Made by a program: the position numbers and the translations under genes
Shown here: positions 9,136 through 51,200 of the stretch, piece by piece
How positions within the stretch are numbered: the first letter of the stretch is position 1
How the letters are laid out: each line of letters starts with the position of its first letter
Notes under the pieces: model-generated
Databases searched by the model: none
Seen by the model: only the letters and a program-made list of their open reading frames with translations
Told to the model about the DNA's origin: nothing
Source of the DNA: a virus
Lineage: Duplodnaviria > Caudoviricetes
Length of the DNA: 64,000 nucleotides
Direction: 5' to 3' (one strand)
IMG/VR virus record: IMGVR_UViG_3300030372_004928
Span: 1 to 64,000 of that record

Positions 9136-9523
9136 TCTTTCGCCCCGTGTTAATTATTTTTTGTTCAGCAATAATTCCAAACATCCCTATACACTCCTTA
9201 ACAAATTTTAAAAAACATTGGTCTATCGTTTTTTGCATTCTATTACTACTCGGCATCTTGCCTTTAAGTGTTTGTGCAGTTTCTGTTGTTTCCCATAACT
9301 TAACAGTCTTGTTAGATTTTTTAATCTGTAAAAAATATGTTAAACGTACTGTTACTTCTAAATCTTTCCTAGCACCTATTATCTCTGTTTTATTATTGTC
9401 GTAAATACTTATGTCAATTCTATATTGCTTATCTATATTCCTTTCCTCTAATTCACTATTCCAATAATCTAAACAATTTAATACTAGTTGTTGGGTTACA
9501 CTTTCTTCTTTTTTCCTTTCCAT
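9122..9523 (-). CDS. Hypothetical protein, first gene of the leftward operon
   Basis: ORF track. Confidence 0.6.
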   Translation of the reverse strand: MERKKEESVTQQLVLNCLDYWNSELEERNIDKQYRIDISIYDNNKTEIIGARKDLEVTVRLTYFLQIKKSNKTVKLWETTETAQTLKGKMPSSNRMQKTIDQCFLKFVKECIGMFGIIAEQKIINTGRKSDNG

Positions 9524-9563
9524 GTTTTGTTATATATATATTTATTAAAATATCCTGTTATAA

Positions 9564-9595
9564 CAAAAGTATATTTTTAAAAAGTATTCTACAAA
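9564..9595 (-). promoter_or_regulatory. Bacteroidota primary-sigma promoter
   Basis: Minus strand TTTG (9592-9595) - 20 nt - TACTTTTG (9564-9571), matching TTTG-N19-21-TAnnTTTG, about 40 nt upstream of the ATG at 9523. Confidence 0.7.
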
Positions 9596-9924
9596 TATTT
9601 TACGACTTATAATATCTCTTGGTTTCATATTTTAAAATAAAATTTTGTAATATATACTATAATATATATTATATATAGCCAGTAGACAAAAAAAATAATG
9701 AAAATTTTTTCACTACTGGCAAAAAATAATGAAAAGAAAATTTTGTACTTTCAATATTTTGTATTAATTTGTGTTATTTATATATATATTATAAATGGTA
9801 TAGGCAAGAGTACTATTTATATTTATGTTTATAGTGTAAATAAATGATGTTTTCATAGATGTTTTCATATAACTTGAAATAGTTATATTCTCTCTTTTTT
9901 ATGGTTTAAAATCAATCATATTTT

Positions 9925-9962
9925 ACCCTTAGTTAAATCCCACTTTAATTAAGGGTTTTTTT
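9925..9962 (+). terminator. Intrinsic terminator-like hairpin
   Basis: ACCCTTAGTTAAA-TCCCAC-TTTAATTAAGGGT followed by a T-run. Confidence 0.55.
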
Positions 9963-10247
9963 ATTTTATTTTTTTTATAAAAAATTTTTTTGGATATATT
10001 TATTATCTGTGTGTTCCTCAATAATGAAACCCCTCCCTTAAAATTTTTGAATTAAATACCCCCCACCAATTGTAATCAAAAACTTAATTTAAAATAAAAT
10101 TCAATCAAAAATTCTTACAGAATTTTTTCTTTCATATGTACAGATTTCTGTTTTTGTTACAGATTTTAAAAGTGTATGTGCATATGTACAGTATGGATTA
10201 AATTTTTTGTTTTTCATTATAGTACGATCAAAGTCTTTAACCAATCA

Positions 10248-10291
10248 TACTTAAAATACCATAAACAGTACAACCTGCGACTGAGGTTTAG
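10248..10291 (+). repeat. Cassette-head repeat, copy 1
   Basis: TACTTAAAATACCA...AACCTGCGACTGAGGTTTAG. Confidence 0.85.
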
Positions 10292-10326
10292 TGTGCGACA
10301 TTGCACATAACAAAAACCATAGTACT

Positions 10327-10476
10327 ATGTTCTTTACATTCATTAAATATGTACACTGTACATATACAAGCAGATTAATACCTCAAGAATTCAATCAAAA
10401 ATTTAATACAGCTACTGATGCATACAATTATGCAAAACAGAATGGCTATGAATTTCACGGTAAAGCTTATGCTTAG
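10327..10476 (+). CDS. 49-aa hypothetical protein (cassette 1)
   Basis: ATG at 10327 is preferred over the GTG at 10291, which sits at the end of the repeat. Confidence 0.55.
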   Translation: MFFTFIKYVHCTYTSRLIPQEFNQKFNTATDAYNYAKQNGYEFHGKAYA

Positions 10477-10485
10477 CTTTATCAT

Positions 10486-10567
10486 AATAAGCATCTTATT
10501 AGTAAGGTGCTTATTTATAAAACTACCAAGCAATAATAACCATTATTAATTATTAATAGTGGTTATT
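10486..10567 (+). terminator. Two successive hairpins closing cassette 1
   Basis: AATAAGCATCTT/AAGGTGCTTATT and AATAACCATTATTAAT/ATTAATAGTGGTTATT stems, each followed by Ts. Confidence 0.65.
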
Positions 10568-10576
10568 TTAACATTA

Positions 10577-10619
10577 TACTTAAAATACCATAAACGCAGA
10601 CCTTCGAATAAGTTTTAGC
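10577..10619 (+). repeat. Cassette-head repeat, copy 2
   Basis: TACTTAAAATACCATAAACGCAGACCTTCGAATAAGTTTTAGC. Confidence 0.85.
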
Positions 10620-10652
10620 ATATAAGTTTGTATGTAACAAAAATCATTAATT

Positions 10653-10802
10653 ATGAAAGAAAGACCATTAAAAATAAAAGTAATAAATCTATTGGGTTTA
10701 TTACTTTTTACCTCATTATTATGGGGTACACAATTACCATATATATTACATTGTTACTGTATTATATTCGGTTTCCTTATGATGTTCGTATCTAAATATT
10801 AA
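10653..10802 (+). CDS. 49-aa two-TM membrane protein (cassette 2)
   Basis: Hand-translated: MKERPLKIKVINLLGLLLFTSLLWGTQLPYILHCYCIIFGFLMMFVSKY. Confidence 0.6.
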   Translation: MKERPLKIKVINLLGLLLFTSLLWGTQLPYILHCYCIIFGFLMMFVSKY

Positions 10803-10826
10803 ATTCATTTATAAAATATAAAAATT

Positions 10827-11006
10827 ATGTCAGAATTACTTCTTATTTCAACAATAGTCGCAATATTTCTATTAATTCTTAAAGAGTTATTAATCAAGTT
10901 TATTAATGCAGACCGAGAATTACTCGGTTATGTAGTATTTGCAATAATTATCGGAATCTTTGGTTCTGGATTAATTGCATATGCAGAACACGGACTATTA
11001 TATTAA
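10827..11006 (+). CDS. 59-aa two-TM membrane protein (cassette 2)
   Basis: Hand-translated: MSELLLISTIVAIFLLILKELLIKFINADRELLGYVVFAIIIGIFGSGLIAYAEHGLLY. Confidence 0.65.
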   Translation: MSELLLISTIVAIFLLILKELLIKFINADRELLGYVVFAIIIGIFGSGLIAYAEHGLLY

Positions 11007-11011
11007 TATAA

Positions 11012-11040
11012 AACCTTACACAATAGTGTAGGGTTATTTT
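11012..11040 (+). terminator. Intrinsic terminator closing cassette 2
   Basis: AACCTTACAC-AATA-GTGTAGGGTT-ATTTT. Confidence 0.7.
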
Positions 11041-11047
11041 CCAACTG

Positions 11048-11090
11048 TACTTAAAATACCATAATCAAGGACCTTCGACTTAGGTTTAGC
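11048..11090 (+). repeat. Cassette-head repeat, copy 3
   Basis: TACTTAAAATACCATAATCAAGGACCTTCGACTTAGGTTTAGC. Confidence 0.85.
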
Positions 11091-11156
11091 TGTAGATTGT
11101 TATTTGCAGCTATTATTAATCTTATTATTTAATTTTTATCAAAAACCTTATTTATT

Positions 11157-11732
11157 ATGAGTGCAACAAAAAAAGTTCACGGACAAAGAGTTAACGTTTC
11201 ATTGCCAATCATTAACTTAAACACAAAATTACAAGGCAAAGACAAAGACAAATTGGTAATGACTGTTAATTCAGCTAATACTGAGTATGAACATAATGTC
11301 GTAATGCTCACTACTGCTGAAGTCGAGAATATGATTGATACTCGATTTACTACAGCAGCTGCAATTATCAATGGGAATTCTTTTGACCCAAGTACATTCA
11401 CTTGTACATTGCAATGGTGTGTAAAGGGTAAGCCAATTGGTAAAGACAAAGATGGTAATACTATCGTTGGTCCTACAGGCTCACCAAATTACCAAGAAAG
11501 CTTTTGGAAAATGGATGATAAAATGATTCATCTTTCTCAATCAGCTGAAGAACAATTAAATGAATTGAATCAACAGATAATGTTGCAGACAGAAATTGCC
11601 TATAATGAGCAGAAAATTACTGCAGCTGATGTTGTAAAAGCTCGCAGAAATAAAGAGAGAATGTCTCGTTTAGCTGCAGCAATGGGTCAAGTATTAGAAA
11701 CTGCAGATGCAGATGATGATATGGGATTGTAA
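11157..11732 (+). CDS. 191-aa hypothetical protein with acidic tail (cassette 3)
   Basis: Beta-rich N-terminus, helical C-terminus, ends ETADADDDMGL. Confidence 0.75.
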   Translation: MSATKKVHGQRVNVSLPIINLNTKLQGKDKDKLVMTVNSANTEYEHNVVMLTTAEVENMIDTRFTTAAAIINGNSFDPSTFTCTLQWCVKGKPIGKDKDGNTIVGPTGSPNYQESFWKMDDKMIHLSQSAEEQLNELNQQIMLQTEIAYNEQKITAADVVKARRNKERMSRLAAAMGQVLETADADDDMGL

Positions 11733-11752
11733 TTCTTTTTTGATTTTTACTC

Positions 11753-11786
11753 AAACCTCACACTTAATCGTGTGGGGTTTGTTTTT
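11753..11786 (+). terminator. Intrinsic terminator closing cassette 3
   Basis: AAACCTCACAC-TTAATC-GTGTGGGGTTT-GTTTTT. Confidence 0.7.
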
Positions 11787-11895
11787 ATTACATAACGTGT
11801 TCTTTTACCTATTTGCAAAAGAACCAAAACAAATCTTCTGCCGAATTGCAGAAGCAGAATTCTATTTGCTGACACAAATAGGAAAAACAAACTAA

Positions 11896-11935
11896 ACTTA
11901 AAATACCACAAAATAACCTTCGACTAAGGTTTGGC
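11896..11935 (+). repeat. Cassette-head repeat, copy 4
   Basis: ACTTAAAATACCACAAAATAACCTTCGACTAAGGTTTGGC. Confidence 0.85.
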
Positions 11936-12417
11936 AAGCCAAACCGTGCTCCGAGCAGCATACGCAGAACTAAGCTACGCTGTAGGGGGATAAGTATGCT
12001 CGATAGCTAAAAATTTGGCAATTATTTCCCCTCCTCCTTATAGATTTTTGTGTTTTTTTATATTTTTTTATTTTTATGGTTTTTGTGAGTTGAGTACTTA
12101 TTTATATCATTATTATTTTCCTTAAAATGTTTTATAATAATAACATAGTAAGTAACGATATTAGTCATCTATACTTACTAGGTATAAATAGTACTTAACT
12201 TAAACCTTGCCTTTAAATGTAAATTAAAACTAAATATAATATTCTAATTTGGAGTACAGTTGGAACTATTGGTGTACTGCGTACACCTATAACATAACCA
12301 TACAAAATCAACTAATTTGTTTATACTAAACTAAACAACTAGTATATATAAAACAAAACAATAAACTAGAAACAAATAGGATTAAACAAATCCTAATTTA
12401 TAACAAAAATATTCACA

Positions 12418-12927
12418 ATGGAAACAACATTAAAGCAATGTATTAACAGATGTGTAGAGTTAATTCAATCAAATGATACAACAATGCAGGAGATTGGACT
12501 AGAAATTATGCTAAATACATTAAAACTAAAACCAAAACAGATAATATATTTATTATTTGTAAGAGGATTAATTTTTAAAAAGACGGAAGCGTATAAGACT
12601 GGATTTGTTGGAGAAGTTATATATAACAACAAAGACTTAAAGATACCAGATAGTGTAGAGGACTATCATTATACAGCAGTAATAACAGGAGAGGTAAACT
12701 TTCTTAATTCTTTTATAAGAATATTTCTTTTACAAGATTCTATTAGTGGAAAATTGTATTACAAAGTATTCTATACAGAATATAAAGAATTTCATAGAGA
12801 CATGACATTTTCAAGTCCTTGTCATACTTATCATAATCTTTATGACAGTATATTATTCAAACATATGCTTAAATTAATAAATAATTATATAACGCCAGTA
12901 GGTAATAAACTAAAGAAACATGGCTGA
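12418..12927 (+). CDS. Hypothetical protein
   Basis: ORF track, 169 aa. Confidence 0.65.
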   Translation: METTLKQCINRCVELIQSNDTTMQEIGLEIMLNTLKLKPKQIIYLLFVRGLIFKKTEAYKTGFVGEVIYNNKDLKIPDSVEDYHYTAVITGEVNFLNSFIRIFLLQDSISGKLYYKVFYTEYKEFHRDMTFSSPCHTYHNLYDSILFKHMLKLINNYITPVGNKLKKHG

Positions 12928-33999: not shown

Positions 34000-36900
34000 T
34001 TAATATAATTTATAAAATTTATAATTTTTATGCATAAAATCAGTTTTAACTTTTTGACTCCAAACAGGAACTAATTTTTGAGCATGAATAGATAATTTAT
34101 TTTCCCCATAATATACCCCACCTTGATATTCTAAATCTTCTGGAGCAGTTATTGGATAAGCTATAACTTCTTTAGATAATCTTAAAATATCTTCCATTGT
34201 TTTAAATGCTGCTAAAGGATTTTTGATAAGTTTTTTACTTTCATTAATCCATCCACCTCCCATAAATACACCTTCTTCATTAAATCCAACTGCAATAGGC
34301 ATATAAGTTGTTAATTCTGTTACGGTTCTATCTAATTGATAAAGTGTAAGTACTAAAGCAAATGGTGGTTCATCATCATCTCCTTTCAGATATTTAGCTA
34401 AACTTAATAAACCTAATGCCATTGCAAAAGCACCATATTCTGCTACTGTTCTTTTAACATTTGCTTTTTGAGTTTCATTTAATGTATGCCAATGAAGTTT
34501 AGCACTTCCGATAAATTTAGTATAATCTCCAATTATATTTCCTATTGCTTTTAAAGCAGTAATTTGCATTTCTCCTTCTTGTTTATTTTCTTGACTTTCT
34601 TTATAAAGTGCTATATTTTCTTGTATTGGTCTTGTTAAGAAATTCCATGTAGTAACGTACATACCTTCATCATAATGAGAACGTCTTTCATTCCATTCAG
34701 TTTTACCGAAAGTAGAACCGAATCTTTTAGTCCAACCAGGTCTCATCCATTTACGGAATTGCATAGCTAATCTTCCTAATGCATATTTCTGTAATGCACC
34801 TGCATCTTCTTTATTATATATACCATGAAGATATTGATTAACTCCTAATACTCTCATTTGAAATTCTGCAATTTCATCTTTCTTTAATTTTGTTCCTTTT
34901 TTTAATTTTAATTTACCATCTGTAAATTCATAACTATCATATAAAGTATCAAACTTTTCAAATTCTGCTTTTAATTCTTTTCGTTTCTTTTTATTTTCAG
35001 CAATTACTTTCTTTACATTTTCAGGGTCAGCATTAATCATTTCTTTAGTTATCTTTGTTAATTTATCTTGAACAAATTCATTAAATTTCATTATTCTTCC
35101 ATTAACTACTCTATGACTATAAGCCATTGCTAATAAAGTACGATTTTGTAAATTATGTTCTGACATATGTTCAAACATAAATGCTTTATTTGTAATAATA
35201 CCCATTTTATTAAGCATTACATTCCCTAATGCATCGCTTTGATTTTCATTTCCAGCTAATTCTTTAAAATCCATTAAAATAGGAATATGATGCATAAATG
35301 CACTCTGTTTAGAGCTAAAATTAAATGAAGCTTCATCATCAGCAAAATAACTAATTATACCTGTTGTATAAGTTCCTGCAGCTTTTCTCCAATCTTTACT
35401 ACTAAAAAATTCACTAGAAACTGCTTCAATTTTACTCATAAGTTCCCCATACACTTGATTATTTAAACTACTATAAGGATTAAAAGCCATACTTTTAAGA
35501 GAAGTATAATTTTGAAGTACTCCTAAAGCTTTTTGCATAGTTCCTTCATCATTCTCAAATTCTTCATAGAAAATCATTCTTAACCAATCATTATATCTAT
35601 CTAAAATTCTACTTCCTTTTGTTCCACTTTTAACTAAATGATCTTCATATCCTGCAGCCCATTTAGCTTTATCTTTTATTGGTGCATTATTTTTTAAGGT
35701 TAATATTTGATGATTTTCAATAAAAGACCTTTTTACTCTAAGCAACTCAAATTCCATTGCTTTTTTATGTTTATGATTTAATGCAGTTTTAATAAAAATT
35801 GGCATTGTCTTAGATAAATCTAATTCTATTGCAGCAGCGTGTGCTTCTTTATTCTCTTTTCTTATTTCTTCATTTAATTTATGATATTTTCTTTTATCTT
35901 CTATAGACATTTCATCATGAATTTCATGTAATTCTTTTTGATTTAATAAATTATTAAACATAAAAGGAATGAAATGTACTATTTCATTATTTACATCTGT
36001 AGCTACACCTTTTGTTTGGTCATAATCTCCTGTTTTTCTCCAACCCATTTTAACTGCAAATTCTTCCATAAATCCTTTCATATTTTTAGGAACAGCAGGT
36101 AAATAACCTTTACTAACCATACTAGATTTTGTATGTTCTGTTAAATAAGCAAGTACTGAAGTTAAATATTTATGAAATTCTAATTCACTTGCTGTAAGAT
36201 TATTATAATCTTCATTACCGTATACACTTTCTTTAGGTTTATACATTACACTACTTTTCTTAAAAATTCTATTTCCTTTTGGGTCAAAGTAAATTAATGT
36301 ATTAAGCCATTTATCATACGCTCTTGTATCATCACTATTAAGAGGATTTTCTAATTCTTTCCTCTTTTCATCCATTATTATTTGTCGTTCCTCATCACTA
36401 CGTTCTTCTACATTGTTATCGTAGAAATCATTAAGAGTATCTCTGTAAGCTTTTGTACCTGTTTTATATTTTGCAGCATCTTTAAAAGCTTTATCTCTTT
36501 CTGCTTTAAATCTATCATAATCTAAATCAGTAATAACTTTCCCAGTTGATTTATCAATAAATTTATCTAATGATGAACCTGAAGCTTCTAATTCTTTTAA
36601 TTTTTCTAACCATTGTTCTGTCATAGCTTTAGTTTCATCATCCATTTCTCTTTTCTTATAAGCATATGCTCTCATTACATTTGCAAAATATCTATTATGA
36701 GTATCTGCTAATGAATCCATGTTATGTTGCATTAAAGATAAATCTCTTTGAGCTTCAAAAAAATCAATATTAGTATTTAAAACACCTCTACCACCACTTA
36801 AAGGATTTGATGATATTTCTTGGTATCTTAAATCTAATTGTTGATTTAACATTTTTAATCTCCATTTTAAATTAGAAATATGGTCTAAATTTCTTTTTAA

Positions 36901-39219
36901 ATCTTGAAAGACAGGATTAATTCTCGTACCATCGCCATAAATAGAAGGTAATTTATCAATTTGAATAACTTGTGACATAAACATATCTACATTGACCATA
37001 AAAGCCATAAAGTCTATAAAACCTTTAGGATTTTTTTCTTCTAACTCTTTAATATCTTGCCATTTATAATTTGAATATCCTTTAGTTTTTTGAATTTCTA
37101 TTTCATTTGTTTCTTCATTTTTAACCTCTACTACACCAGGATTAAATTTATTTGTTATATTTAAAAGACCTCTTGTAATAAATTTATTATAAGCTATAAT
37201 TGCTAAATTTTCATCGGCAACACTCATTTGTTCTATTAATTTTTCTACAGTCTTTTTATATTTTGCAGCTCTTTCTCCAATTCCTGAAGCTTTTGCTACT
37301 GTTACTGATTTTTGTAAATTAATTATAGCTTCTTCTAACCATTTTTGAACTTCAGTATCTCTATCTATTTGTACTTTTAAATCATTTTGAGTTTTAATAC
37401 TTTCATTTAATTGAGCTGATGCTTTTTCTAAATCTTCTCCTTGCATATAAGCTTGCAACATTTTTTCCATCATTGATTCTAATGGCAAAACTCCATCTTT
37501 ATTTAATCCTTGAACTTCTTCACTTGCAATTGCTACATCAGCGTATCTTGTTTCTCCTTTTTCATTTTTTTGTGCAATACCTTCTAAAGGGATAATTGCT
37601 AAAGCATGTTCTCCTGTTTGTTTATTATCTTTTACAAATTCAAAACCTTGTCTTTCTAAAATTAATTGGTAAGTAGATAATTGTAAAGAATAACTTCTAG
37701 CTGAAGTATATTCCATATCTTCTATAAAACCTTTAAACATTTTTTTAGAACCGTCTTTCTTATATTTATATTGATAAAAATCGTCAAACTTTCCATATTC
37801 TTTAGTTTTCCAATCATATATCATATATTTTCCATCGGGTCTACGAATAAGAAGGTCAATTGTACCTCCTACTCCCATTTCTTCATCAAATACTTTTACT
37901 TCTGGAAATAATTCATAATCTTTTTCTATTAAAGATTCAATAAAATCTGCTATATTATTTATATAACCTTTAACAAGTTTTTGGTCCATTCCCGAATAAA
38001 ATCTAATCCCATCTGCATCTAACCCTCCTTCGGGTTTATATAAATTACTTAATGCAGCATTTATAGAATCTTCTCTAGATTTACCTGCAGTTCTTGCTTT
38101 GATATAATCTTCTGTAATATTATGAATACCTGTACCTTCTTCTCTTTTATCTGCCCAAAAAGTTTCTAAATCTTCTTTACTAACAAAGTTTGCCCATTCG
38201 CCTTTTCTATTTTTTAATAAAGATTCTATTACTGAATCTTTATCAAATATCCCTCTTAGTTCATCTATAGCAGTTGTTACCCTGTTAATAACTACATCTT
38301 CTTTACCATCTTTTGTTAATTCTTTAGGAATAATATAGGAACTTTCATCTTCTGTTTTTCCTAATTTTTCCCCTCTTTTAATTAAATCTGATATATCTGT
38401 TTTTTGTTTTTGTACTTTACTAGATAATTTTCCTGTAAGAACAAATCTTTTTTTACTGCCAGTAAGGGCATAAGCTAACTTCAAGGTTGTATCATCATTA
38501 ATACCTAAATTAACTCCTATCATTCTTATAGCATTACTAAACCATGCTGCCCATCCTTTAATTTTATCTAATATAGTTCCTTTTTTTAGATTTCTAATTT
38601 TAACTCTTTCATCATAAAGCTTTTGTGCTTCTATACCAATAGCTGTAGTTAAAACTTCTTTACCTAATTGTTCATCATTTAATTCTTTATATAATGCAGC
38701 AACTTGTTTCCACAATTCACTTCCTCTAAGATTCTCAATTCCTTTTTTAAGCACTCTATCATTCTGTAATAAATCAACAAATAAGTGACTAAATTCATGA
38801 AATACACTATCCTTTCTAGCATTTTTACTATTAAATTTTACTGTAGTTTTTCCATTTATAGTAAATACTTGACCTGCATCAAGTATATTTGTATCAAATT
38901 TTACATCAATATCTAAACCTAAATCTTCAAATATTGTTGTTAAAGTTTCTATTTGTTCAATAGCTGCACTATTACTAAAACCACCAGTATCATTAAATAT
39001 TTCTAAATTTTTTGTTTCTCCATCTAAATTCAAGAAATATAAATTATCTGTTACTATAGCTTCTCCATTGCTATCAAGTTTTCCTGTATACCAATCTTTA
39101 AAAGTAGGAGTCTGTGAAGTTGCCCAAGCTTTTAATGCAGTTTTATGCCCATGTACTTTATAAACTGAATCATACAATTTAGATTTATTACCATTAGGTG
39201 CAGTATATTTACAAGCCAT
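34000..39219 (-). CDS. Giant virion (ejected) protein with zincin-like and PD-(D/E)XK domains
   Basis: MACK..PNG..S.LY N-terminus; HEFSH; GTGIH...E.KV...GTIDLL...IYDWKT...YSLQLSTY. Adjacent to the vRNAP gene. Confidence 0.75.
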   Translation of the reverse strand: MACKYTAPNGNKSKLYDSVYKVHGHKTALKAWATSQTPTFKDWYTGKLDSNGEAIVTDNLYFLNLDGETKNLEIFNDTGGFSNSAAIEQIETLTTIFEDLGLDIDVKFDTNILDAGQVFTINGKTTVKFNSKNARKDSVFHEFSHLFVDLLQNDRVLKKGIENLRGSELWKQVAALYKELNDEQLGKEVLTTAIGIEAQKLYDERVKIRNLKKGTILDKIKGWAAWFSNAIRMIGVNLGINDDTTLKLAYALTGSKKRFVLTGKLSSKVQKQKTDISDLIKRGEKLGKTEDESSYIIPKELTKDGKEDVVINRVTTAIDELRGIFDKDSVIESLLKNRKGEWANFVSKEDLETFWADKREEGTGIHNITEDYIKARTAGKSREDSINAALSNLYKPEGGLDADGIRFYSGMDQKLVKGYINNIADFIESLIEKDYELFPEVKVFDEEMGVGGTIDLLIRRPDGKYMIYDWKTKEYGKFDDFYQYKYKKDGSKKMFKGFIEDMEYTSARSYSLQLSTYQLILERQGFEFVKDNKQTGEHALAIIPLEGIAQKNEKGETRYADVAIASEEVQGLNKDGVLPLESMMEKMLQAYMQGEDLEKASAQLNESIKTQNDLKVQIDRDTEVQKWLEEAIINLQKSVTVAKASGIGERAAKYKKTVEKLIEQMSVADENLAIIAYNKFITRGLLNITNKFNPGVVEVKNEETNEIEIQKTKGYSNYKWQDIKELEEKNPKGFIDFMAFMVNVDMFMSQVIQIDKLPSIYGDGTRINPVFQDLKRNLDHISNLKWRLKMLNQQLDLRYQEISSNPLSGGRGVLNTNIDFFEAQRDLSLMQHNMDSLADTHNRYFANVMRAYAYKKREMDDETKAMTEQWLEKLKELEASGSSLDKFIDKSTGKVITDLDYDRFKAERDKAFKDAAKYKTGTKAYRDTLNDFYDNNVEERSDEERQIIMDEKRKELENPLNSDDTRAYDKWLNTLIYFDPKGNRIFKKSSVMYKPKESVYGNEDYNNLTASELEFHKYLTSVLAYLTEHTKSSMVSKGYLPAVPKNMKGFMEEFAVKMGWRKTGDYDQTKGVATDVNNEIVHFIPFMFNNLLNQKELHEIHDEMSIEDKRKYHKLNEEIRKENKEAHAAAIELDLSKTMPIFIKTALNHKHKKAMEFELLRVKRSFIENHQILTLKNNAPIKDKAKWAAGYEDHLVKSGTKGSRILDRYNDWLRMIFYEEFENDEGTMQKALGVLQNYTSLKSMAFNPYSSLNNQVYGELMSKIEAVSSEFFSSKDWRKAAGTYTTGIISYFADDEASFNFSSKQSAFMHHIPILMDFKELAGNENQSDALGNVMLNKMGIITNKAFMFEHMSEHNLQNRTLLAMAYSHRVVNGRIMKFNEFVQDKLTKITKEMINADPENVKKVIAENKKKRKELKAEFEKFDTLYDSYEFTDGKLKLKKGTKLKKDEIAEFQMRVLGVNQYLHGIYNKEDAGALQKYALGRLAMQFRKWMRPGWTKRFGSTFGKTEWNERRSHYDEGMYVTTWNFLTRPIQENIALYKESQENKQEGEMQITALKAIGNIIGDYTKFIGSAKLHWHTLNETQKANVKRTVAEYGAFAMALGLLSLAKYLKGDDDEPPFALVLTLYQLDRTVTELTTYMPIAVGFNEEGVFMGGGWINESKKLIKNPLAAFKTMEDILRLSKEVIAYPITAPEDLEYQGGVYYGENKLSIHAQKLVPVWSQKVKTDFMHKNYKFYKLY

Positions 39220-39259: not shown

Positions 39260-42200
39260 TTAACAATTTTTACCTTTTCTATTTATTAATGGTTTTGTTG
39301 CTTTATTTTCTTCATTAGTTAATATATCACTATTAAAAGGTTTTTTACTAAAATAATGAATACCATTTTCAATTTTTTCATATAATCCTGTATTTCCTCC
39401 TTTATTTACTTTTAAATAAGTTTGTAAATTTTGTAAAGCTTTTACTGTTGCTATATTTCCCGAACCAAAAGTAGGAGAAGTAGTTCCATCTTCATTTTTT
39501 TGTGCTTTTATCATAACTACTCCATTAGCTCGTAATACAGAATATATTTTTCCATAAACACTAGTATTTTTAAATTTACCTTCTTCATTAAAAATAGAAT
39601 CATCTACAGTTTTAGCAGTAGTGTAACCCATTATAGTTGGAAATGTAACCATTATTTTATCATTATCAGTAAATTCTGACTTATTAGCTAATTCTCCAAA
39701 AGATTTAGTTAAAAGTTTTAAATCTGTACTTACTATTTCTTCAGTAGCATTTTTTCCTATTTCACTGCCTATAAAACCTGTAGCAGTAGTATACATAATT
39801 TTATCTGGAGCATTTATATTTTCTAATTCAAGATTATTGTAAGTCATAAAGTTAGCATTAAGATCATTTAAACCAAATTCATTATTTCCTTGAATTGCAA
39901 TTTCAAAATCATTTTGACTTCTACTAACTTGATTTTCTTTAATAAAAGATTTTTCACTAGATTCAGTTATATTAATACTACCTAGTTTATCTACAGGATA
40001 AAAATAAGTAGAACCATCTTTTTCTATATATTTTTTATATAAAATATCTTCTTGTTTTATAGATTCATTATTTATTAATAGTGTTTTAGTTCCTACTATA
40101 TAATCAGATTGAACTACTCTTAAATCTTCATTTTGATATTCAGATGTAGTTACTTCTATAAATTCTTTAGTTGCACCCATAATAATGGTTTTCCAATCAG
40201 GTGTACCATTTATTGTACCTTTTTCACCTAATTCTCTTTTTGTATATACTCTAGGTACAATATCAGTATTAAACCAATTACTTCTTATAAATTTATCTTT
40301 AATATCTTCATATCTATCTAACAAGAAATTATCCATTTTAGATTTTTCTTTAAGATCATATAAGAATTTATCTAAACCTATTTCTTTAAATACTTCTGTA
40401 GGAATTAATTTACTAAAACTATTTTTATTCATAGTTAAGCCAGTAGTAAAGAAAGAATATTTTACTAAATCTTGAGCTAATGATTTTTCAAATTCATCAT
40501 TAGAATTCCACATTTCAAGAAAAGAATCAATAATAGTATCATCTAATAAAGAATCTGTTTTTGTATTTTGGAATTCTATAAAATGCATAGAATTTTTCTT
40601 TACATCTTTTTCTCCTAATTTGTGAGTTAAATAGTTTAAAATATGAGTATCATTTTGAAGTTTATCTTTAAGTTTATTCTGCATTATTTGTAGTTTATTT
40701 GCAGTACTTAATTTATTAAAATCTTCAATACTTATATTTATATCTGTTTTAACTTCCAAATTTTCTGCACCTAAAATTCTTTGTTTTGTATTATTATTCT
40801 CATAATTTTCAGAAAAGAATTCAAATTCATTTTGTAAATAAGTTAAAATATATTGAGATAATTTATCTGCATTTTTTGGATTAAAATGTATACCTGTATC
40901 ATTAGTAAAAACTTGTATAAATTTTCTAAACGCTACTGAATGTTGTATAAATAATGGAGATAATATTTCTGTTGCTGCATCAAAAGCTTCTTCTTTATAA
41001 GCTTTAAGTACAGGATATTTACTATCTTCTCCATAAACTGCTATAGTTGCAGGTACAGTTTCACCATTTACTTTTGCAAAAACTCTAGCATCACTTTCAA
41101 CTCTTATAACTGTATCTTCTCTAATTGTTCTTTTTTCTTCTGCAGTTGTTTCTTCTGCTCTTTTTCTTCTTAATAATTCATTAGCAGTCATTATTTCTCC
41201 ATTAAACTCTACTCTTGTTTCTCCATCAACTTTTAAATTTCTTAATTGACTAAATTTCATATAGTAAGTAGCTTTCTGTATACTTTTATTAAGCATTTCT
41301 GGTCTTGTCAACGAAGGTCCAACATCTGTTCTATCTGATGCTGTAGCTTTTATCATATCATCATAACCTTCTCCTGCTTTTTTATATCTTTTAAACATTT
41401 CAAGAATTTTAATTTGGTCTTGAAGATACCTAGCTTTTTCTATAGGAGTTAAATTATTATAATTACTAGATACACTATTTTTTATATGATTTTTAAGTGT
41501 ATCTACATCAAAAGCAAAAGATTCAGAAGTATCTATATTAAATAAATCTTTTAATTCTGTTGTATCAGGATTTATATCTTCTCCATTACTTATTTGAGAA
41601 TCAAATGGTTCAATTACAGCAAATTCTTTTCCGTCTATAGTTAATATTTTTACATAATCTTTTACATTTCTAAGAAAATTATTTTTTGGGTTTCTTGCAA
41701 TTTTATATAATTCAGTAATATATCTATTTTTTATTGCTTCAATTTCTTTACCTAAATTTTCATCTTCAGTAAATCCTTGTGTTTCAAAAAATAATTCACT
41801 TAAATCATTTAATATAGGTTGACGAATAAACATACTTGTATATCTAATATCCATACCTGTATTCAACATTGTAATAAATGTATTAAATGTGTATGTATTT
41901 ACATTAGGTGGAAGTCCTTCTTTTACTATATCTAATGTCATTGCTAAAACTTGACTAGCATGAATCATTGTATTGTCTCCATTTACATTTGTAAATGTAC
42001 CATCATTATTCCATCCTAAATTTTTATGTTTAACGGTAACATAATCTTTTTGAGGTTTAGGTTTAGGTTTAGCAGGTTTTGCCATTTTAGGCATAGAAGG
42101 TAAACCTGTGTCTTTAATAGGTTTAACTCTTCTCATAGTTATAGATATTCTATAACTACCTTTAGGATAAGTTTTGCCGTCTATTTCAGTAGTTATTTCA

Positions 42201-45200
42201 GGTAAAAAGCCATCTACTTTATTTGGTGCAGTTCTATGCCATACTTTTCTATTTTTTCCTTTAATACCAAAAACATAACCATCTCCTGCATTTAATTCTG
42301 TAACACCTTTACCGACTCTTTCTATTGAAAAATTACCACTACCACCTATATTAACTACTAAAACAGGATAACCTATAGTATCACTTGCTTCACTAACATC
42401 TTGATGGGAATGTATAAAATGATTTTCACTATATAAATTAATAATAGCACCGTCATAATCACTAGCATCAACTCCTGTAGCTTTTGTCATTAATTCTTTT
42501 AATCTATCATTTACTGGTTCTAATGGCTCGCCATTTATAGATTTATCAAAATAACCAAATTTTGATCTAGTTCCATCCATACCTCTGTCAAGAATAGTAC
42601 CTAAATCTATTGGTTCTTTATTTGGATTATTATCTTTATAATCCCATCTTAAACCTAAACCAATCATTACATTAGCATCTTTTCCTTTATTTGTTACAGC
42701 TCCTTGTCTTTCTAAAATAGGTTTAAGCATTTCAAATAATTCAATTTGTTCTGCTTCTGTAAGTGCATTCCTTTTTACTTCAACTCCATCAATTATTTTT
42801 TCAGTTTTAATTTTTGAAGGTTGTTTAATTTCATCAGTAACTTGTTCAGCAACTTGTTCAGATTTTGACCATACACCAAGAACATTACCATCTACAGTTA
42901 TTTCAGAATAATTATAACCTTTAGCTTCTAGATTTTTATAAAGCCTTTTTTCTCCTTCATTATAATCACTATCATCTATATAATCTTTATTATCAGCAAT
43001 AATAGTAGCACCTGCTTCCAAAGCTTTAATAGCTTCTCTTATAGTTTTATCTTGTTGGGTTTTTCTTAAATCAGCTGCACCTCTTTTACCCCCTATAGAA
43101 ACAAATATTACATCATTATCTCCATAATTACCAGTGTTAGCGTATTCTCCTGCTTCTTCTGCATAATGTGCTGTACTGCTATCTTTAATACCTTCAGCAA
43201 AACCTATATATTGTGTAGCAATTTTAGCTTTTGCTTTAGCTTTTTTATCAGCTTTTTTTATAGGAGTGACAGTAAACACATTTTTAGCAGAATCTATTTT
43301 AGCAACTTCTTCAGTAATTACATCTCCTAATTCTGCTTCTTTCCTCCATAAACCAAATGTTTGTCCATCAATTACTGTTTCTGTATATACTGCACCTTCT
43401 GAATCTAAAAAGTCTCTTAAAGCTTTTTTTGGAGTATAACTTCCTGCTGAATTTAATGTACCTATATTATCAGTAATAATAGCTGCACCAGATTGTAAAA
43501 CCTTTTTCAATTCAGCTTTTGTCTTTTTTAATCCTTCTCGAAAATTTCTACTATAAGAAACAAGTACAACATCGTCTTTAGTATAATTTCCACTATTTAC
43601 AACAGATTTATCTTTTATTTGGTCTTGATAAAATCTTGTATTATTATTTCCTGCAGAACCAAATCCTACAAATTTTGTAGATACTGTAGCCATTAATGGA
43701 GTTTTAGTATCTCTTTTATCTTTACTTACAAATGGTTCTAAAGTAAATACAGTTTGTTTATCTAAATCTTCTGTAGTTTCTGCTTGTATATTTCTTACAC
43801 CAGGTCTAGATTTTTTATTTAAAGTTTCAACATTTTCTTCTCCATATTTTTCTTTTAATTCTTTTTCAGAATAAACTTTAGTTACCCTATTTAACTTTCC
43901 TTCTTTCATTAACTTTTCATTTTCTTTTATCTCTTCTTTAGTTAATGGGGTAGTTCTATAATTTGTATGAAAAGCTAATTCATCTGCTAAAAACATTTCA
44001 ACAACTTGTGCTACACTTAAAAAAGTATTACTATTTGCAGCCATACCTTTTAATGCAATACCAGAAATATTTTGTTTTCTATATTCTAATTGAGCATAAG
44101 CTGTTGCAGGATTTAAGTGTTCAACTTCTTTTCCTAATAAAGTATTTATTTCATCAATAACATCTGCAGCATCTTCAAAAGATTGAGAAGTTACAACTCC
44201 ACTAAAGTGATCGGGATGTAATAATTTAGCTTTGAAAATATCTAAAATACGATTATCTCTTGCTTTTCTTGTATTAGCTTGTGCTTCAGATAATTTATCG
44301 TATTCTTTTCTTAATGTTTCTAAATTTTTTGCACCTAATAATGCTTGATATTTTTTACGATTATTTAATGCTTGTTTCTCTTTCTTTTTAACTTCTTCTA
44401 CATAAGTATTATATTCTTTAACATCTTTTAAACGTGATATAATAAAGTTTTTAGTTTCTTTAACACTTTTTTCTAATGCAAATGCATTTGCTTGAATACT
44501 TCTTAATCGTAAATCTTCTTTAGTATTTCTACCCCAATGTTGTAAACCGTATTGATTTTGAACATATTCAATTGTAGCTTTTGCTCTTTCTTTTTGTACT
44601 TCTAGATAATTAAATAATTCATCAATTTCAGTAAAGTTTGTTTGAGCCCCTTCATTAAAAACATCAAATATAGCTTGTAATTGTCTTGTTGTATCTTCTG
44701 CAGTTTCTTGCTTTACTTCATGTAAATTCTGTTGAGTAGTATTAAATCTTTTTACTTGTGTATTTAACTTTTTAGCTTCTTGGTCTGGATTATCTTTTAA
44801 ATTTTCAAGTAATTTTTTTGCTGCTCTAGATTCTAACCAAGCAGTAAATCCTTCTTCTCCTTTTTCATAATAATCATTTTTTTGATAAGTTCTTTTACCA
44901 TCTATATCTGTAGTAGTAAAACTATGATACATAATATATTCCTTATCAACATCAAAGTCAAATCCTTTAGCAGTAACATATTCTTGAGGTAGAACAATTG
45001 TACTTCCACTTTCTACAGGCAGAAATCCTACAACTTTAAATACAGTAAACATATAATCTTGTTCTGAAGGAATTCTATAAGAAATCATAGTTCTTAATTC
45101 TTCAGGTATATTGTTTATATCATCAAGTACATATTCTCCTTTTTCATTTTTAACATAAAACTGTTTACTCCATGCAGGTAAAAGTGCTTCAGCAGTAACA

Positions 45201-48200
45201 ACTTTACCATCTTTAGAAGTAGACATTTGTAGTTTAGAATTTTTTCTTTTCTTAACATCATCGTGCCATATAATTCCTCCATCATCTTTAAAATCCTCAT
45301 CTCCTTTTACTTCAGCATTTAAAAATACACTACTTAAAAGTACTCCACTTCCACCAGGTACTTTTTGATTTACAACTCTATCTGTAAATAAACTTGTTAA
45401 AATAGCTTGCCATTTTTTAGTCATATTACTCATAAATAAAGGAAGATTAAAATTACCTTCTGCATCTAATTCAATTGCTTCAAGATAATTTTCAGCTAAC
45501 AACTTTCTATTTACTTCATTTATTAATATATCACTAAGTTTACTATAATCAGTTATTACAAATTCATTATTTTCATCTATTTCTACTCCAATATCTTCTC
45601 TTAATGTTGCACCATCTTCAACAATATTTTGAATCATAACATCCATATAATGTTTAATATATTCATCTCTTGTATATTCAGTTCCAGCTACATTATAAAC
45701 ATTTCCTTTAGGGAGGTTTCCAATAATAATTTTAGCTATTTGTGTACCTAACTTATTTTTACTATCCATCATATGGTCAGGTACATCTAATTGTAATTTC
45801 CAATTACTTTGTTTGTATTCTTTAAATACATATCCTTTTTCAAGTGTAAATTGGTTTAATTTATCTTCTACAAGGTTGCCATTAGCGTCAGTAACATCCA
45901 TGGCATATTCTTTTCCTGTTTTTTCTGCAGATTCAAATTGTACCTCATCTATTTCATTTTTTTCCATCCAATTAGAAATAGTTTCTAATTGAGTATTTTT
46001 TATTAATTGAGGTATAAGAACAATAGTACTATATTTTACTTGTGTACTTACATGTCTTTTAAGATTAGGATTAAATTCTCTACCATAATAAAATCCTTTA
46101 AAAGGTTGAATAAATAACTCTAATTCATTTCTTTTTAAAGGTTGACCTTTTTTTACTTTATCAAATAATCTTTCATATGTAGAATTCCATCTACCGTAAT
46201 CTTTGAGAATATTTTCTGCTCTTGCAATAGTTATATACCCTTGACCATCTGCAACATTTGTTTCTAAATAACCTTTTGTTATTTTATGAACAGCTATCTC
46301 AAGAGCATTCATTTTAGTATAATTAGGTTTAGTCTTATTAACTTTATTTATATCTACAGTTTGATTTCCGTATTTATTAGGTTGACTTTTTTGTAATGAT
46401 TTAGCTACATTTTCTACAATATTTTCATAATTTTCAGATTTAAGTTCTATGTCTTTTAATGTTGCAGCTGTATAAAACTCTCCTGTATAGTTATTAGCAC
46501 CTGCATTACCTGGTGAATGCGGTCCTTTTGCTCTTTTATTTACATTTTTAGAAGGATATAATTCTTCTTTTTTTGTTCCAAATTCAGCTTGATTTCCTAC
46601 TATATAATTAAATTGTTCGACATTACTAATGTAATTATTTAACATAAATTCTGCTATAAAATTATCAAAACCATTATCATCTTTTGTAGCATAATCGTTA
46701 AATCTTACAGATTGAGTATATACTTTTTCAGTATGTCCATAAACTTCTTTACCTCTTTGAATTTGTTGTGCAATAAATTCATTTATTTTTTCATAAACAG
46801 AATTATTTATTTGTTGTATTGCATTTTGACTTTTATATACATCTGCAAAATACATCCCATCTATAAAAAGTTTATCTATTTGATTTATAGAAGGAATATT
46901 TTGGAATTTAAACACATCTCCTGTCGGTTCTCCTTTTTCATTAAGTAATTTAGGTAATAAAATTCCTGCTTCTTTTGAATATTCAAGCTCTTTCCAATAA
47001 TAGTTTTCTTCTAATTTTGTATAATCTAAATGTATATCTCCATCAAATTCAGGGTCTCCACGAAATTTATGTTCTTTTGGTTTAAAAGTTCCTTTCTTTT
47101 TATCTACAATAAATAATAAATCTCTTGCTGCTTTCATTCTCTGCATTTCTTGAGAAACAGTATTTTTTATAGCTATAAATAAAGGATTTTCTATTACTTG
47201 ATCATGTTCATTTTTTATATATCTAGGTACTGTACCGTTTTGTACTCCTTCAAAAATAGGACTATTTATAAAATGAATATTACCAGAATCAGAAGGAATA
47301 GGCATTGATATTTTTGAGAAACCATTTTTATATCCTTCCAAATACATTAATACTTGGGTCATTTGCCATGCTTTATCAGGCATATCTCTATACTGATAAC
47401 CTTCTTTAGTTTGTGTGTTTTTAACACCCCCTTGTCTTGAATATCTCCAATTTTTTAGAAATTCATCAATTAATTCTGTAGTCTTGAATTGATTATCTAT
47501 TGGAAATAACCAATTACTATATTGCATTGCAGGGTCTTGTGCATATTGTTGTAATAATTGTAATAATTGTTCTTTAGCTTTACTAGAAGTATGATACATA
47601 GGATTAGATGCTGCTTCTACTAATCCAAAAAATTCACTTAAAAAACTTGGATTTACTGTTCCATAAACATTATTACCATTTACATCAAAATAACTAGATT
47701 CAATTAAATCGTATTGAAAAACATTTACTTGTTCAGCTACATCATTTAATCTATTAATTGATTGTTCTTCAATTAAAATTTCCTCAATTTTTTCTTTCCT
47801 TTCTAAATAATCTTTTTCAGTTAATTTTTCTTTTTGTGCTTCTAAAGTATTTAATTCTATATTTTTATTTTTAAGTTGACTTAAAATAGGTCTAATTATA
47901 AACTCTAAATTACTTTTGAAAACATTATTATAGAAATCTACTTTAGATTTATTATTCCTTAATCCAACAGGATTTGATAAAACTTTTTCTATCATTTCTT
48001 TTGTTAAAGGAATTCCTAATGCATTAAATGCTTTTTCTGTAGCTTCAACTACTTTATCATTATTTCTCCATGATTTAGAATTATATAAACCATTTTTTTT
48101 ACTTTGTATAATTTTTATATAATCATATAGTATTTTTTCTAATTTATCTAAAGTTAATTCTCCAGAATTTAATTTTGAATTAATATTAGATTGCCATTTT

Positions 48201-51200
48201 TCTGCAAGAATATAATGACTAATATTTTTATTTGCACTATCTAATTTAATTCCATCAGTGCTATATAATATTACATCAACATTAGGTCTAGCTTTTTTAA
48301 ATTGTGAAACCCAAGCAGATTTAAATAAAGGATCAGTTTGTAATTTATTTAATAACTCTTGAAAAGCAGGATTATGTTTTCTCATTAATTCCAATCTTGC
48401 ACTCATTTCATTGAAATCTAATGAACCTACCATATTCCTTTGAATGTAAGGATAAACTTTATTAAAATCTAGAAAAACAGGTAGACCTAAAAATGTATCT
48501 TTAGAATCAAAGCTTTCAGTAGTCATTATTTCTCCTTTCACAAAATTACTTACAGTATCTTTTTGTGAAGTTCCAAATATTAAAGAATCATCCCATTCTT
48601 TTTTTAATTCAGTAGATTTCTCTAAATTAACTAATTCTTTATTTACTTCAATTCCAAATTGTCTATTGACATAGTTTACAGTTTTATCATACAATTCATT
48701 ATAAATTGCATAATTATTTCTTTGGTCAAGTACTTTTTCTATATTTTGTCTTTTTTGAGATTTTCCTTCAGCTCTTTTTTCTGATTCATACTGACGTAAT
48801 TTCTTTTTAATAAATTCTCTAGGAGATTTACTAGGATTATTTGCTATATCTTCTAATGTTAAATTAGGATTTTGTTTTCTATAAGTTATTAATTCTCTAG
48901 CTAATAAATTTATAACTTCACTTTGTTCCCCTCTTGTCAGACCACCTACTGGTTTTTTATACCTAGTTAATTTCTTAGCAAATTCAACCATTTGTTCATC
49001 TGGTTTGAAATTGAATTTACCCGAATCAATATCTTCAAATAATTTATCTAATTTAGAAACATCTTTTTTAGTAAAGAAATTAACAATCAAATCTCTCAAT
49101 TTAGCAAAGAATCCTTTTACTTTTTTAGATACTTTTTTAGTTGCACCTTTTTTCAGCATATAATCCATGAAATCATCAGCCATTAATTCTTCTAAAGAAA
49201 GATTAGTTCTATTGCCGTATTTTTTTCTTCCTTCTTGATATAGTTCTTTTCTTTGTTCTTCAGTTGTATATAACCAAAAAACAACGTGAAAAGCTTCATG
49301 ATATGCTGTACCTTTTGGAGCATCAATACTTAAACGAACCATTGCTTCACTAAATAAACCCCAAGCATCTGGCCCTTTAGTTTTTATTAAGCCTACTATA
49401 TTAGTGTCTAATTCTATATTATCTCCAAAAACTTTTTTCCACCATTTTTTAACTTCTTCTATATTTTCTTTTTCTTTTACTTCTTCAACTGTTTCTGTTG
49501 CTATTTTTTTTCTTCTAAAACTAGAAGTTATACTCATTTCTACTTTACCTTCTTGATTAGTAGTTTTAACAACATCACCCCAATATCTTTCTTCAAGAAA
49601 TCTGTCTAATTCTGTAGCAATATCCCAGTTATCTACAACAACTTTTTGATTAGCAAGAAGATTATCTGCTAATCTTTGAATATCTGCATCTACTTCTGTA
49701 TCATCTGCATCTGTTTCTTCTGTATCAACTTCTTCTTCTGTATCATCTTTAGTGTCTGTTTCTGTTTTTTCTTCAAATAAAGGTTTACCTTCTTGACCAT
49801 GAAAATATAAATCATCACTAATACTTATAATTAAATGACTATTTTTTCTTTTACCTGCATTTTTATTAGTTACAGAAGGCAAAGGATAACCATTTTTATC
49901 AGTAACAATTTCTCCTTTTTCATTTTCTTTAGTAGGAGGTTTTCTTAAATATCTTAAATCAGTTAATAACATATCAGAACTTAATAAATAATTAAAATAA
50001 TTATTGTAGTCCATTTCGCCATCGTTATAAACTTCGTTATGTTTTTCTAAAGCTTTAAGATTAATATTATGCTTTTTTTGTTGTAATGCTTTTTTTATAA
50101 CATCTTCAATGATTTCTTTTCTACCTTCTAATTCTTCAGATTCTTTATTATATAAAGATAAAGTATTAGGTTTTTTCGAAACAGATTCAAAAGGTACGAT
50201 ATTTCCATCTTTATCTGTAACTTGAATATTTAAAACTTTTTTAGTTGAATCAGTTGTTTTAGGTGCTGTTATATAAATAGTTAATGTATCTCCATCACCA
50301 TAACTGAACTGCATTTTATTATCAAATATCTTAAAACTATTATCTCCTATATTATCAACTTTTGCATCTAAATTTACATTTAAAATTGTACCAAGAGTTT
50401 CTTTTAATTTTATAAAATCTTTATCCTTTTTTAAGGTACTCCATTCTGTTCCTTGAAATTCTCTTAATTTATCTGCTAATTCAAAAATTAAATTTGTAGC
50501 TCTTTGTGATATAGCTTCAGATAGTGTATTTATATCTAATGGTACAGGAATATATGTATTTAATTCTCCTGGTATTGAATTTGCACCTTTAACAAGTATA
50601 TATAATTTACCAAAATCATATTTTTCATCATGATTAAAAAATGCTCCTGTATCTGCATTTCTTGTAAATTTTTGTCCATCGTAATTAACTAATTGAGTTT
50701 CAGATGCACTTTTTGGGTCTAAATAAAATATATTATTAAGATTAATTTGAGCATTAGGAGGTAATCCTTCATTTAATTGTTCATTTAAAGATTCAAATTC
50801 TCCTACTTGAAGTAAATTACCACTTGTTTTTCTTGTGACTCTAGTACGTAAATCACTTATAACAGCTGGAGAATAATTGTGTTGTTTAAATACATTTGTT
50901 ATTTTCTTTACAGTTTGTAATTGTTTTTCTAATAAGTAAATATGTGAAATAAAAGGTTTATTTATTTCATTACCTTCTAATTCATCTATTCTCCATTGAA
51001 TTAGTTTTCTTTGTGCTTCAGTTACTTTAGGTTCTTCAAGTCCTTTGTTTAATCTATCAATGTCTGTTATTTCATTAATTTGTTTTGCAAAATTTAAATC
51101 CTTTTGTATAGATTTAACAGAATTTAAAGAACCTAAAACAACCTCTTCTCTAACACCAGAACCTTGTGGACTTATATACTTAATCATTATTCTATAATCT

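Follow-up and report, generated by a model that had tools for sequence, protein, structure and literature searches.

The early promoters P1-P3 of coliphage N4 are DNA hairpins, with a 5-7-bp stem and a 3-nt loop, that are read by a T7-like single-subunit virion RNA polymerase (vRNAP). In Thermus phage P23-45, which carries a two-barrel vRNAP fused to the tape-measure protein, a conserved motif that is also present in relatives lies upstream of clustered pre-early start sites (Nat Commun 2024, PMC10770324), and the pre-early terminators likewise share a conserved motif (PMC10770324). Among crAss-like phages, the rightward early genes of Cellulophaga phage phi14:2 are transcribed in the presence of rifampicin, an activity attributed to an injected RNA polymerase (RNAP) (bioRxiv 10.1101/2020.03.07.982082; Nature 2021), and long gaps near the head of this module give rise to abundant early non-coding RNAs (bioRxiv 10.1101/2020.03.07.982082). 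In this sole experimental study, the sequences preceding the early 5' ends of phi14:2 showed no motif in common, and the crAss-type RNAP was active only on single-stranded DNA (bioRxiv 10.1101/2020.03.07.982082). The middle and late (leftward) genes of phi14:2 use host-type promoters of the TTG-N20-TAnnTTTG kind, and a 2023 review of the Crassvirales does not mention promoters. Here, we analyse the first 64 kb (hereafter the window) of an 80,496-bp virus record (IMG/VR IMGVR_UViG_3300030372_004928, positions 1 to 64,000; genome label G000), in which a two-block element repeated four times at the head of the early genes offers a sharp candidate for the DNA signal recognised by an injected crAss-type RNAP. 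On balance, we favour the view that these units are early promoters specific to the phage, with the injected two-barrel vRNAP as their probable reader.

The G000 assembly is circular (101-bp end overlap), with 28% G+C. Its rightward block (approximately 10.3-32.5 kb) encodes a Dda-like helicase, PolA, a superfamily 2 (SF2) helicase, a DnaB-like protein and a primase, and the remaining genes, which include lysis genes, terminase, structural genes and a 5367-aa open reading frame (ORF), run leftward. The four units are clustered within 1.7 kb just to the right of the divergent junction (9523/10327), heading the rightward early/replication block. Each unit comprises an upstream box and a second block of 17 bases (the 17-mer), and the whole conserved signal covers 30-55 bases. 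The box is marked by the 13-mer ACTTAAAATACCA, which occurs in four exact copies, all on the + strand (10249, 10578, 11049 and 11896), and the second blocks start at 10273, 10600, 11071 and 11916. In unit 1, the box (10249-10264, +) contains the 13-mer (10249-10261) and the family core ACCATAA (10258-10264) and is followed by the 17-mer ACCTGCGACTGAGGTTT (10273-10289, +), with the invariant A12-G13 at 10284-10285. Unit 2 (10578-10616, +) has its box at 10578-10590, its core at 10587-10593 and its 17-mer at 10600-10616; unit 3 (11049-11087, +), whose box (11049-11061) is preceded by CCAACTGTA, a possible third block, has its 17-mer at 11071-11087; and unit 4 (11896-11932, +) combines a box at 11896-11908 with a 17-mer at 11916-11932. 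Base G13 of the four 17-mers corresponds to positions 10285, 10612, 11083 and 11928. The 13-mers and the second block behind each of them had been noticed in an earlier, sequence-only reading of this DNA and are confirmed by exact scans and shuffles. A motif scan of the remaining genome, which that reading had suggested, confines both blocks to the four units: ACTTAAAATACCA has no further exact copy in the 80,496-bp genome and none in 100 dinucleotide shuffles, and ACCnnCnACTnAGnTTT, the invariant skeleton of the second block, which follows each 13-mer after 11-15 nt, matches no place other than those four in the whole genome, on both strands and with up to one mismatch allowed (shuffle expectation, 0.0 and 0.3). 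The four-copy repetition is real and well beyond chance.

G000 belongs to a clade of uncultured, abundant, marine crAss-like phages. Its closest GenBank phages by helicase are Crassvirales with less than 30% identity, blastn of the array region against GenBank phages gave no match, and single-protein searches of IMG/VR found no relatives. The nearer relatives are contigs from Tara and other marine metagenomes, gathered via a large protein search and contig look-ups, plus one metagenome pattern scan. The two-block element recurs in at least seven related phage lineages. Approximately 47 distinct instances come from about 20 marine contigs, in which helicase identity to G000 ranges from 80% down to 37% (L010, the closest relative, 80%; L012, 63%; L014, 57%; L015, 52%; L017, 47%; L018 and L019, 37%). 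L010 carries four units at syntenic places in surrounding DNA that is only 76-84% identical. Remoter relatives lack the full 13-mer and retain the core AAT-ACCAYAA, 4-8 variable bases and ACCnnCnACTwAGkTTT, with variants among lineages (AATACCA, AGATACCA and TGACCA; ACCTTCG, ACCCTCA and ACCACCT). The flanks, the spacer sequence and the spacer length (4-8 nt) drift; the blocks stay. About half of the instances additionally show a weak third block, CAAYWGTA, 8-12 nt ahead of the box. The 17-mer is the most universal part of the element, since the first units of L014, L032, L017 and L018, in which ACCAYAA is absent, keep it.

The placement of the units is as constant as their sequence. All of them are intergenic, with 2-4 per contig in helicase-anchored loci, and where the locus can be oriented by the helicase every unit lies on the helicase strand, upstream of this gene. 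Many units directly follow a hairpin and T-run. The first unit of L017 and L018 adjoins the divergent junction and is separated from the first rightward ATG by 31-38 nt, and tandem units, 57-143 nt apart, lie upstream of a small RNA (see below) in L018 (5771 and 5828), L025 (175 and 265) and L014 (2928 and 3071). In being intergenic, restricted to one strand, located at the module head, mostly preceded by terminators and conserved in distant relatives, the repeats behave as transcription signals, in agreement with the sequence-only reading. When the core pattern was scanned against metagenomes, ten further marine contigs with 1-4 units each were retrieved, besides about a dozen chance matches. 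Pattern scans of IMG/VR outside this record returned none, or chance matches in coding DNA of unrelated GC-rich contigs, and a text search of the literature for the motif turned up nothing but unrelated primers. Four chance matches in genomes (L048, L051, L054 and L059) are copies of one repeated Moorena element that fits the pattern by accident and is unrelated to the phage motif.

The second block had been proposed to form an ACCT(T)CGACT-AGGT hairpin, a proposal that is not borne out by its relatives. Across 37 distinct 17-mers, variation is absent or almost absent at A1, C2, C3, C6, A12 and G13, and A8, C9, T10 and T15-17 are close to invariant. In the corresponding ACCTT/AAGGT stem, pairs 2-14, 4-12 and 5-11 form in 16, 22 and 14 of the 37, respectively, with no compensatory change. 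An N4-like hairpin in this block was rejected on these pair counts and on the one-sidedness of the changes; the block is a conserved sequence that is read as sequence, not a conserved stem. Neither the box nor bases 1-11 of the 17-mer show structure or covariation.

Structure is found downstream, in the RNA. The 42 nt from A12 fold with a mean of -8.2 kcal/mol in the sense strand, versus -6.0 in the antisense strand and -4.8 after shuffling (Wilcoxon p = 4e-6 and 2e-8, values inflated by orthologues). This sense/antisense asymmetry stems from G-U pairs, and the structure is therefore selected in the sense-strand RNA. In unit 1, a GGTTT/AAACC stem (10285-10318, +) encloses a hairpin at 10291-10308 and lies in the 5' leader of a 49-aa ORF; the hairpin of unit 2 (10618-10635, +) contains G-U pairs and is sense-strand specific; and that of unit 3 (11087-11112, +) belongs to a 42-nt segment that folds with -13.3 kcal/mol in sense versus -5.5 in antisense. 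Units that head a non-coding stretch have a stem, GGTTTRGC/GCYAAACC, that takes in the last five bases of the 17-mer. Across 12 orthologues, this stem shows at least five pair states (TTTGGC/GCCAAA, TTTAGC/GCTAAA, TTTGC/GCAAA, TTTGAC/GTCAAA and GCCTGG/CCAGGC), with double changes in five of its seven pairs and 89.6% of cells paired. The observed paired fraction or covariation score was reached by none of 500 shuffles, and slid registers collapse. Within the window, the small RNA behind unit 4 (11928-12009, +) has a covarying P1 (11928-11945), a P2 (11946-11961) and the conserved 3' motif TATGCTCGATAGCTA (11995-12009). Since the covarying stem includes GGTTT, the RNAs of the small-RNA units contain G13 onward. 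We infer that the transcripts begin no later than G13; if they begin at the invariant A12/G13, the hairpin would stand at the very 5' end of the RNA. A pairing-probability profile computed with upstream context was tried as a locator of the 5' end and discarded: it jumps at G13, but A/C-rich bases further upstream account for half of this pairing.

Promoters for sigma-A of the Bacteroidota consist of TTTG at -33 and TAnnTTTG at -7. A promoter of this type, TTG-N20-TAnnTTTG, is present on the - strand (9564-9594) and precedes the first leftward gene (ATG 9523) by 40 nt. The same arrangement, 20-40 nt before the first leftward ATG, is found in all four genomes in which the junction is visible (G000, L010, L017 and L018), a conservation that supports a Bacteroidota host. 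A regular-expression search for TTG-N20-TAnnTTTG returned none at the rightward units. Because the leftward gene has a host-type promoter and the rightward units do not, two promoter classes appear to coexist at the divergent junction. An exact in-register TAnnTTTG is found in none of the four window units (TGAGGTTTA, TAAGTTTTA, TAGGTTTA and TAAGGTTTG), and a -33 TTG, 17-21 nt upstream of the -7 box, is absent at the rightward units; a host-type promoter within the window units was rejected on these two grounds. TAAGTTTG at 10623, in the hairpin of unit 2, fits TAnnTTTG, but is not kept in L027, L023 and L010 and is regarded as a chance match. The sequence-only reading was thus right that the window copies of the box do not match the host promoter, and missed the resemblance of the 3' end of the 17-mer to TAnnTTTG.

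This resemblance raises the alternative that the units are read by the host RNAP, either by sigma-A using the degenerate -7-like TwAGkTTT(G) with ACCAYAA at -33, or with the help of a sigma factor or activator delivered by the virion. The 3' half of the 17-mer is a TAnnTTTG in several relatives, the start-to-start distance from ACCA to TwAG (approximately 20-24 nt) is like the -33/-7 spacing, and box-less units tend to have the best -7 match. We nonetheless consider this alternative unlikely. None of the G000 units has an exact -7 box in register, and none has a TTG at -33, in contrast to the genuine host-type promoter conserved on the opposite strand, and a start 4-7 nt past TTTG would land inside the covarying, G-U-containing P1 hairpin. 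Moreover, the invariant ACCnnCnAC upstream of the -7-like part is not needed by sigma-A promoters, and the pattern occurs at chance level among 185,579 prokaryote genomes, with single matches only and no enrichment in the genomes of Bacteroidota.

RNase III sites lie between the early genes of T7, and the units could similarly be elements of RNA only, i.e., processing, stabilising or nut-like reloading sites inside a long early transcript initiated ahead of unit 1. The downstream hairpin is indeed an RNA feature, the upstream hairpins could act as 3' stabilisers after cleavage, L010 genes that lie behind terminators and have no box imply read-through, and a conserved non-coding stretch of 280 nt precedes unit 1. 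This explanation, too, seems improbable to us: the units come right after hairpins with real T-runs (some of T6-T7 in L010), the box and bases 1-11 of the 17-mer are unstructured and do not covary, a canonical + strand promoter was not found upstream of unit 1, and Rfam gave no match. The position of the first units of L017 and L018, so close to the first rightward ATG and beside the divergent junction, also weighs against it.

The organisation of the array fits a series of short transcription units. Units 1-3 each precede one or more small ORFs and then a strong hairpin with a T-run; ORFs and hairpin/T-run scores thus uphold the earlier view of copies 1-3 as heads of small genes closed by terminators. 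The closing hairpins (10486-10515, 10535-10567, 11012-11035 and 11752-11781) have folding energies (dG) of -13 to -18 and z of -3.9 to -6.1. Cassette 1 consists of an ORF of 49 aa (10327-10476, +), conserved in L010, L027 and L023, and is closed by two terminator-like hairpins (10486-10567, +), the second followed by ATTTT. Cassette 2 (10653-11006, +) holds two small membrane-type ORFs, of 49 aa (10653-10802) and 59 aa (10827-11006), and ends in a terminator hairpin (11012-11035, +). Cassette 3 encodes a conserved early protein of 191 aa (11157-11732, +) and has an intrinsic terminator (11752-11781, +) with a 12-bp stem, a T-run and a dG of -18.3. The array terminators share one sequence family (AAACCYTRCAC, loop, GTGYRGGGTT, T-run), which is repeated in G000 (11012-11035 and 11752-11781) and at least five times in L010 (4030-4060, 4270-4300, 4625-4660, 5175-5210 and 6075-6110).

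Cassettes 1 (49 aa), 3 (191 aa) and 4 (RNA) are stable, whereas cassette 2 contains 2, 3, 5 or more small genes across G000, L023, L027 and L010, and each added gene has a terminator of the family and none has a box. The sequence-only reading had envisaged a plug-in array in which cassettes are swapped through their repeated heads. Content between the repeats does vary in close relatives, in cassette 2; exchange via the heads is unsupported because the variable genes lie inside this cassette, where terminators of the family and not boxes flank them, so the terminator repeats are likelier mediators of the variability than the promoter heads are. A role of the repeats as DNA sites for integron-like cassette exchange or as replication-origin iterons, suggested by direct repeats in an array that varies in gene content among close relatives and adjoins the replication module, is very improbable, given the position of the variable genes between terminators, the absence of a recombinase among the ORFs scanned and the location of the sites, unlike iterons, 330-850 bp apart in 5' leaders at a fixed distance (approximately 31-38 nt) from the start codon.

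The interpretation of the units as early promoters is favoured by the order of terminator, signal, structured leader of 31-70 nt and ORF, which is the usual promoter layout, and by the tandem units of L018, L025 and L014 and the placement at the divergent junction, both of which fit promoters. In L014 and L043, the first tandem unit may drive an extra short RNA. The assignment of the units to the 5367-aa vRNAP is by analogy only, and draws on phi14:2, whose rightward early module is rifampicin-resistant and yields abundant early non-coding RNAs, and on P23-45, whose related vRNAP relies on a motif repeated at clustered pre-early starts, accompanied by a motif conserved among the terminators. 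The gene of this putative reader (39260-55363, -) encodes, at residue 3469, a DFDVD motif, which matches the crAss-type catalytic motif, whose fourth position is V or I. A domain search found the RNA_pol domain absent from the large virion proteins of G000, and PF00940 (single-subunit RNAP) had no match in G000, nor in the control genomes.

Several observations weigh against this interpretation. The element family was not found in phi14:2, and this phage, the sole crAss-like phage with mapped early 5' ends, showed no common motif. In L010, cassette 2 genes follow terminators without any box, and with four sites only, transcription would have to pass leaky terminators to reach the 20-kb replication block. 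In its 3' portion (TwAGkTTT-R), the 17-mer resembles a -7 box and in some relatives matches one exactly (TAGGTTTG, TAGTTTTG). The two blocks may differ in role, given the first units that lack ACCAYAA. Many instances are orthologues, and p-values thus overstate their independence. Finally, the start sites in this phage come from the sequence and not from transcript 5' ends, and folding that includes 40 nt of upstream context does not distinguish forward from backward pairing of GGTTT.

If the units are early promoters, each of the four would drive a short immediate-early transcription unit with a terminator of its own, all of them at the head of the rightward module. The signal would consist of the weak CAAYWGTA as a possible third block, AAT-ACCAYAA, 4-8 variable bases and ACCnnCnACTwAG, and the start would probably be at the invariant A12/G13, so that the RNA begins with G(G/T)TTT. 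In many units, G(G/T)TTT would fold into a 5'-terminal hairpin, likely a stabiliser. The products would be tiny proteins (cassettes 1-2), the 191-aa protein (cassette 3) and the small RNA (cassette 4); the replication genes may be reached by read-through, and the reading enzyme would most likely be the injected 5367-aa two-barrel vRNAP. More tentatively, ACCAYAA, 4-8 nt and ACCnnCnACTwAG with an AG start could represent the first promoter consensus for a crAss-type two-barrel vRNAP, giving every immediate-early RNA a 5'-terminal hairpin and driving a conserved early kit of an OB-like (oligonucleotide/oligosaccharide-binding) protein and an RNA of 80-95 nt.

Two products of the array deserve separate mention. 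Unit 4 precedes 522 nt without an ORF (to 12417), and this gap is 84% identical to L010, above neighbouring coding DNA. The small RNA of 80-95 nt within it comprises P1, a variable P2 and the motif TATGCTCGAYAGCTA, approximately 80 nt from the start of the 17-mer. TATGCTCGAYAGCTA occurs once per genome or contig where it is found, always behind a unit, and the small-RNA family is present in every lineage whose unit-4 region is present. An Rfam search of 9400-12500 identified no family, the best E values (0.56-0.63) being far below gathering. The 191-aa protein has a unit upstream of it in six lineages. Its model (pLDDT 76) combines a small beta-barrel with a 60-residue C-terminal helix, and the top Foldseek matches are OB and single-stranded-DNA-binding (SSB) folds, with E of at least 0.03. 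With VIA, the N-terminal domain gives OB-type folds (Z of at most 5.5), and the whole-model search is dominated by the long helix. PHROGs returned nothing for this protein, and Atlas no named cluster above 0.82. As a weak lead, the modelled protein may be distantly OB-like; an early role in binding single-stranded DNA or RNA, which this fold thinly suggests, would fit a polymerase that prefers single-stranded DNA. Transcript-like contigs were sought among those with the 191-aa gene, and all of them are metagenomic.

Further features were noted around the array and the vRNAP gene. A stretch of 330 nt (approximately 9600-9925) without a conserved ORF, 77% identical to L010, is closed by a strong + strand terminator (9925-9956, dG -14); it could be a rightward transcript upstream of unit 1 that lacks its own unit. 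Within the divergent region, 9668-9730 contains a long inverted repeat, GCCAGTAGAC...CACTACTGGC, with the L010 counterpart GCCAGTAGA...TCTACTGGC. The non-coding interval 9966-10248 shows conservation in L010 (blastn, 82% across 9972-10637) and contains the C-rich motifs AAACCCCTCCC and ATACCCCCCACC, as well as CATATGTACAG twice (10133 and 10181); this block might serve in regulation, as a packaging end or as an origin. Pfam places a 2-oxoglutarate-Fe(II) (2OG-Fe(II)) oxygenase domain inside the vRNAP ORF (39260-47311, -), a PD-(D/E)XK nuclease domain in its 1739-aa neighbour (34000-39219, -) and a Peptidase_M15 domain at the end of a 1048-aa protein (55401-58547, -).

The significance of the array lies in what it would reveal about early transcription in these phages. 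If our interpretation is true, the element would provide the first consensus for promoters of virion RNA polymerases of the crAss type and a search pattern for the early regions of related metagenomic contigs, and the units would mark an immediate-early gene set that includes a conserved small RNA and a small protein. The invariant bases, the predicted start and the natural variants in at least seven lineages make the question testable in vitro.

Compared with known systems, the element resembles a Bacteroidota sigma-A promoter in that the 3' end of the 17-mer is near a -7 box and the spacing of the blocks is near that of -33/-7, but it differs in having no -33 TTG, an imperfect -7 in all four window units, an extra invariant ACCnnCnAC and a probable start upstream of TTT. 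A lambda-type nut site would require a boxB-like stem-loop, which is not maintained in the second block; the units directly follow terminators, and no upstream promoter was recognised. As in promoters of the T7/T3 class, the conserved block abuts the start site. The T3 promoter, AACCCTCACTAAAG followed by GG, resembles the AACCCTCGACTAAG followed by G of some members, which would place +1 at G13 and which we treat as a lead only; members of the type at 3057-3081 in L015 (AACCCTCGACTAAGG) are also near the T3 promoter AACCCTCACTAAAGG, which we provisionally treat as coincidence. However, the likeness to this class needs a shifted register and concerns a single-subunit RNAP, which was not detected. 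The array shares with N4 a few repeated phage-specific signals at the early end, each heading a short terminated unit and, by the reading favoured here, read before phage protein synthesis. In contrast to N4, the second-block stem is not conserved, the conserved hairpin is downstream and RNA-like, and the candidate polymerase is a two-barrel DFDVD enzyme. With P23-45, it shares a two-barrel virion RNAP as the candidate enzyme, a clustered conserved motif that recurs in relatives, and terminators that have a motif in common; the motif of P23-45 is AT-rich with mapped starts, whereas the one described here is bipartite, with C-rich invariants, and is known from sequence. A similar setting is that of phi14:2, a marine crAss-like phage with an early rightward module, non-coding RNAs, of which the unit 4 RNA is reminiscent, and host-type leftward promoters; the difference is that phi14:2 has no shared early motif, whereas this clade has a sharp, repeated one.

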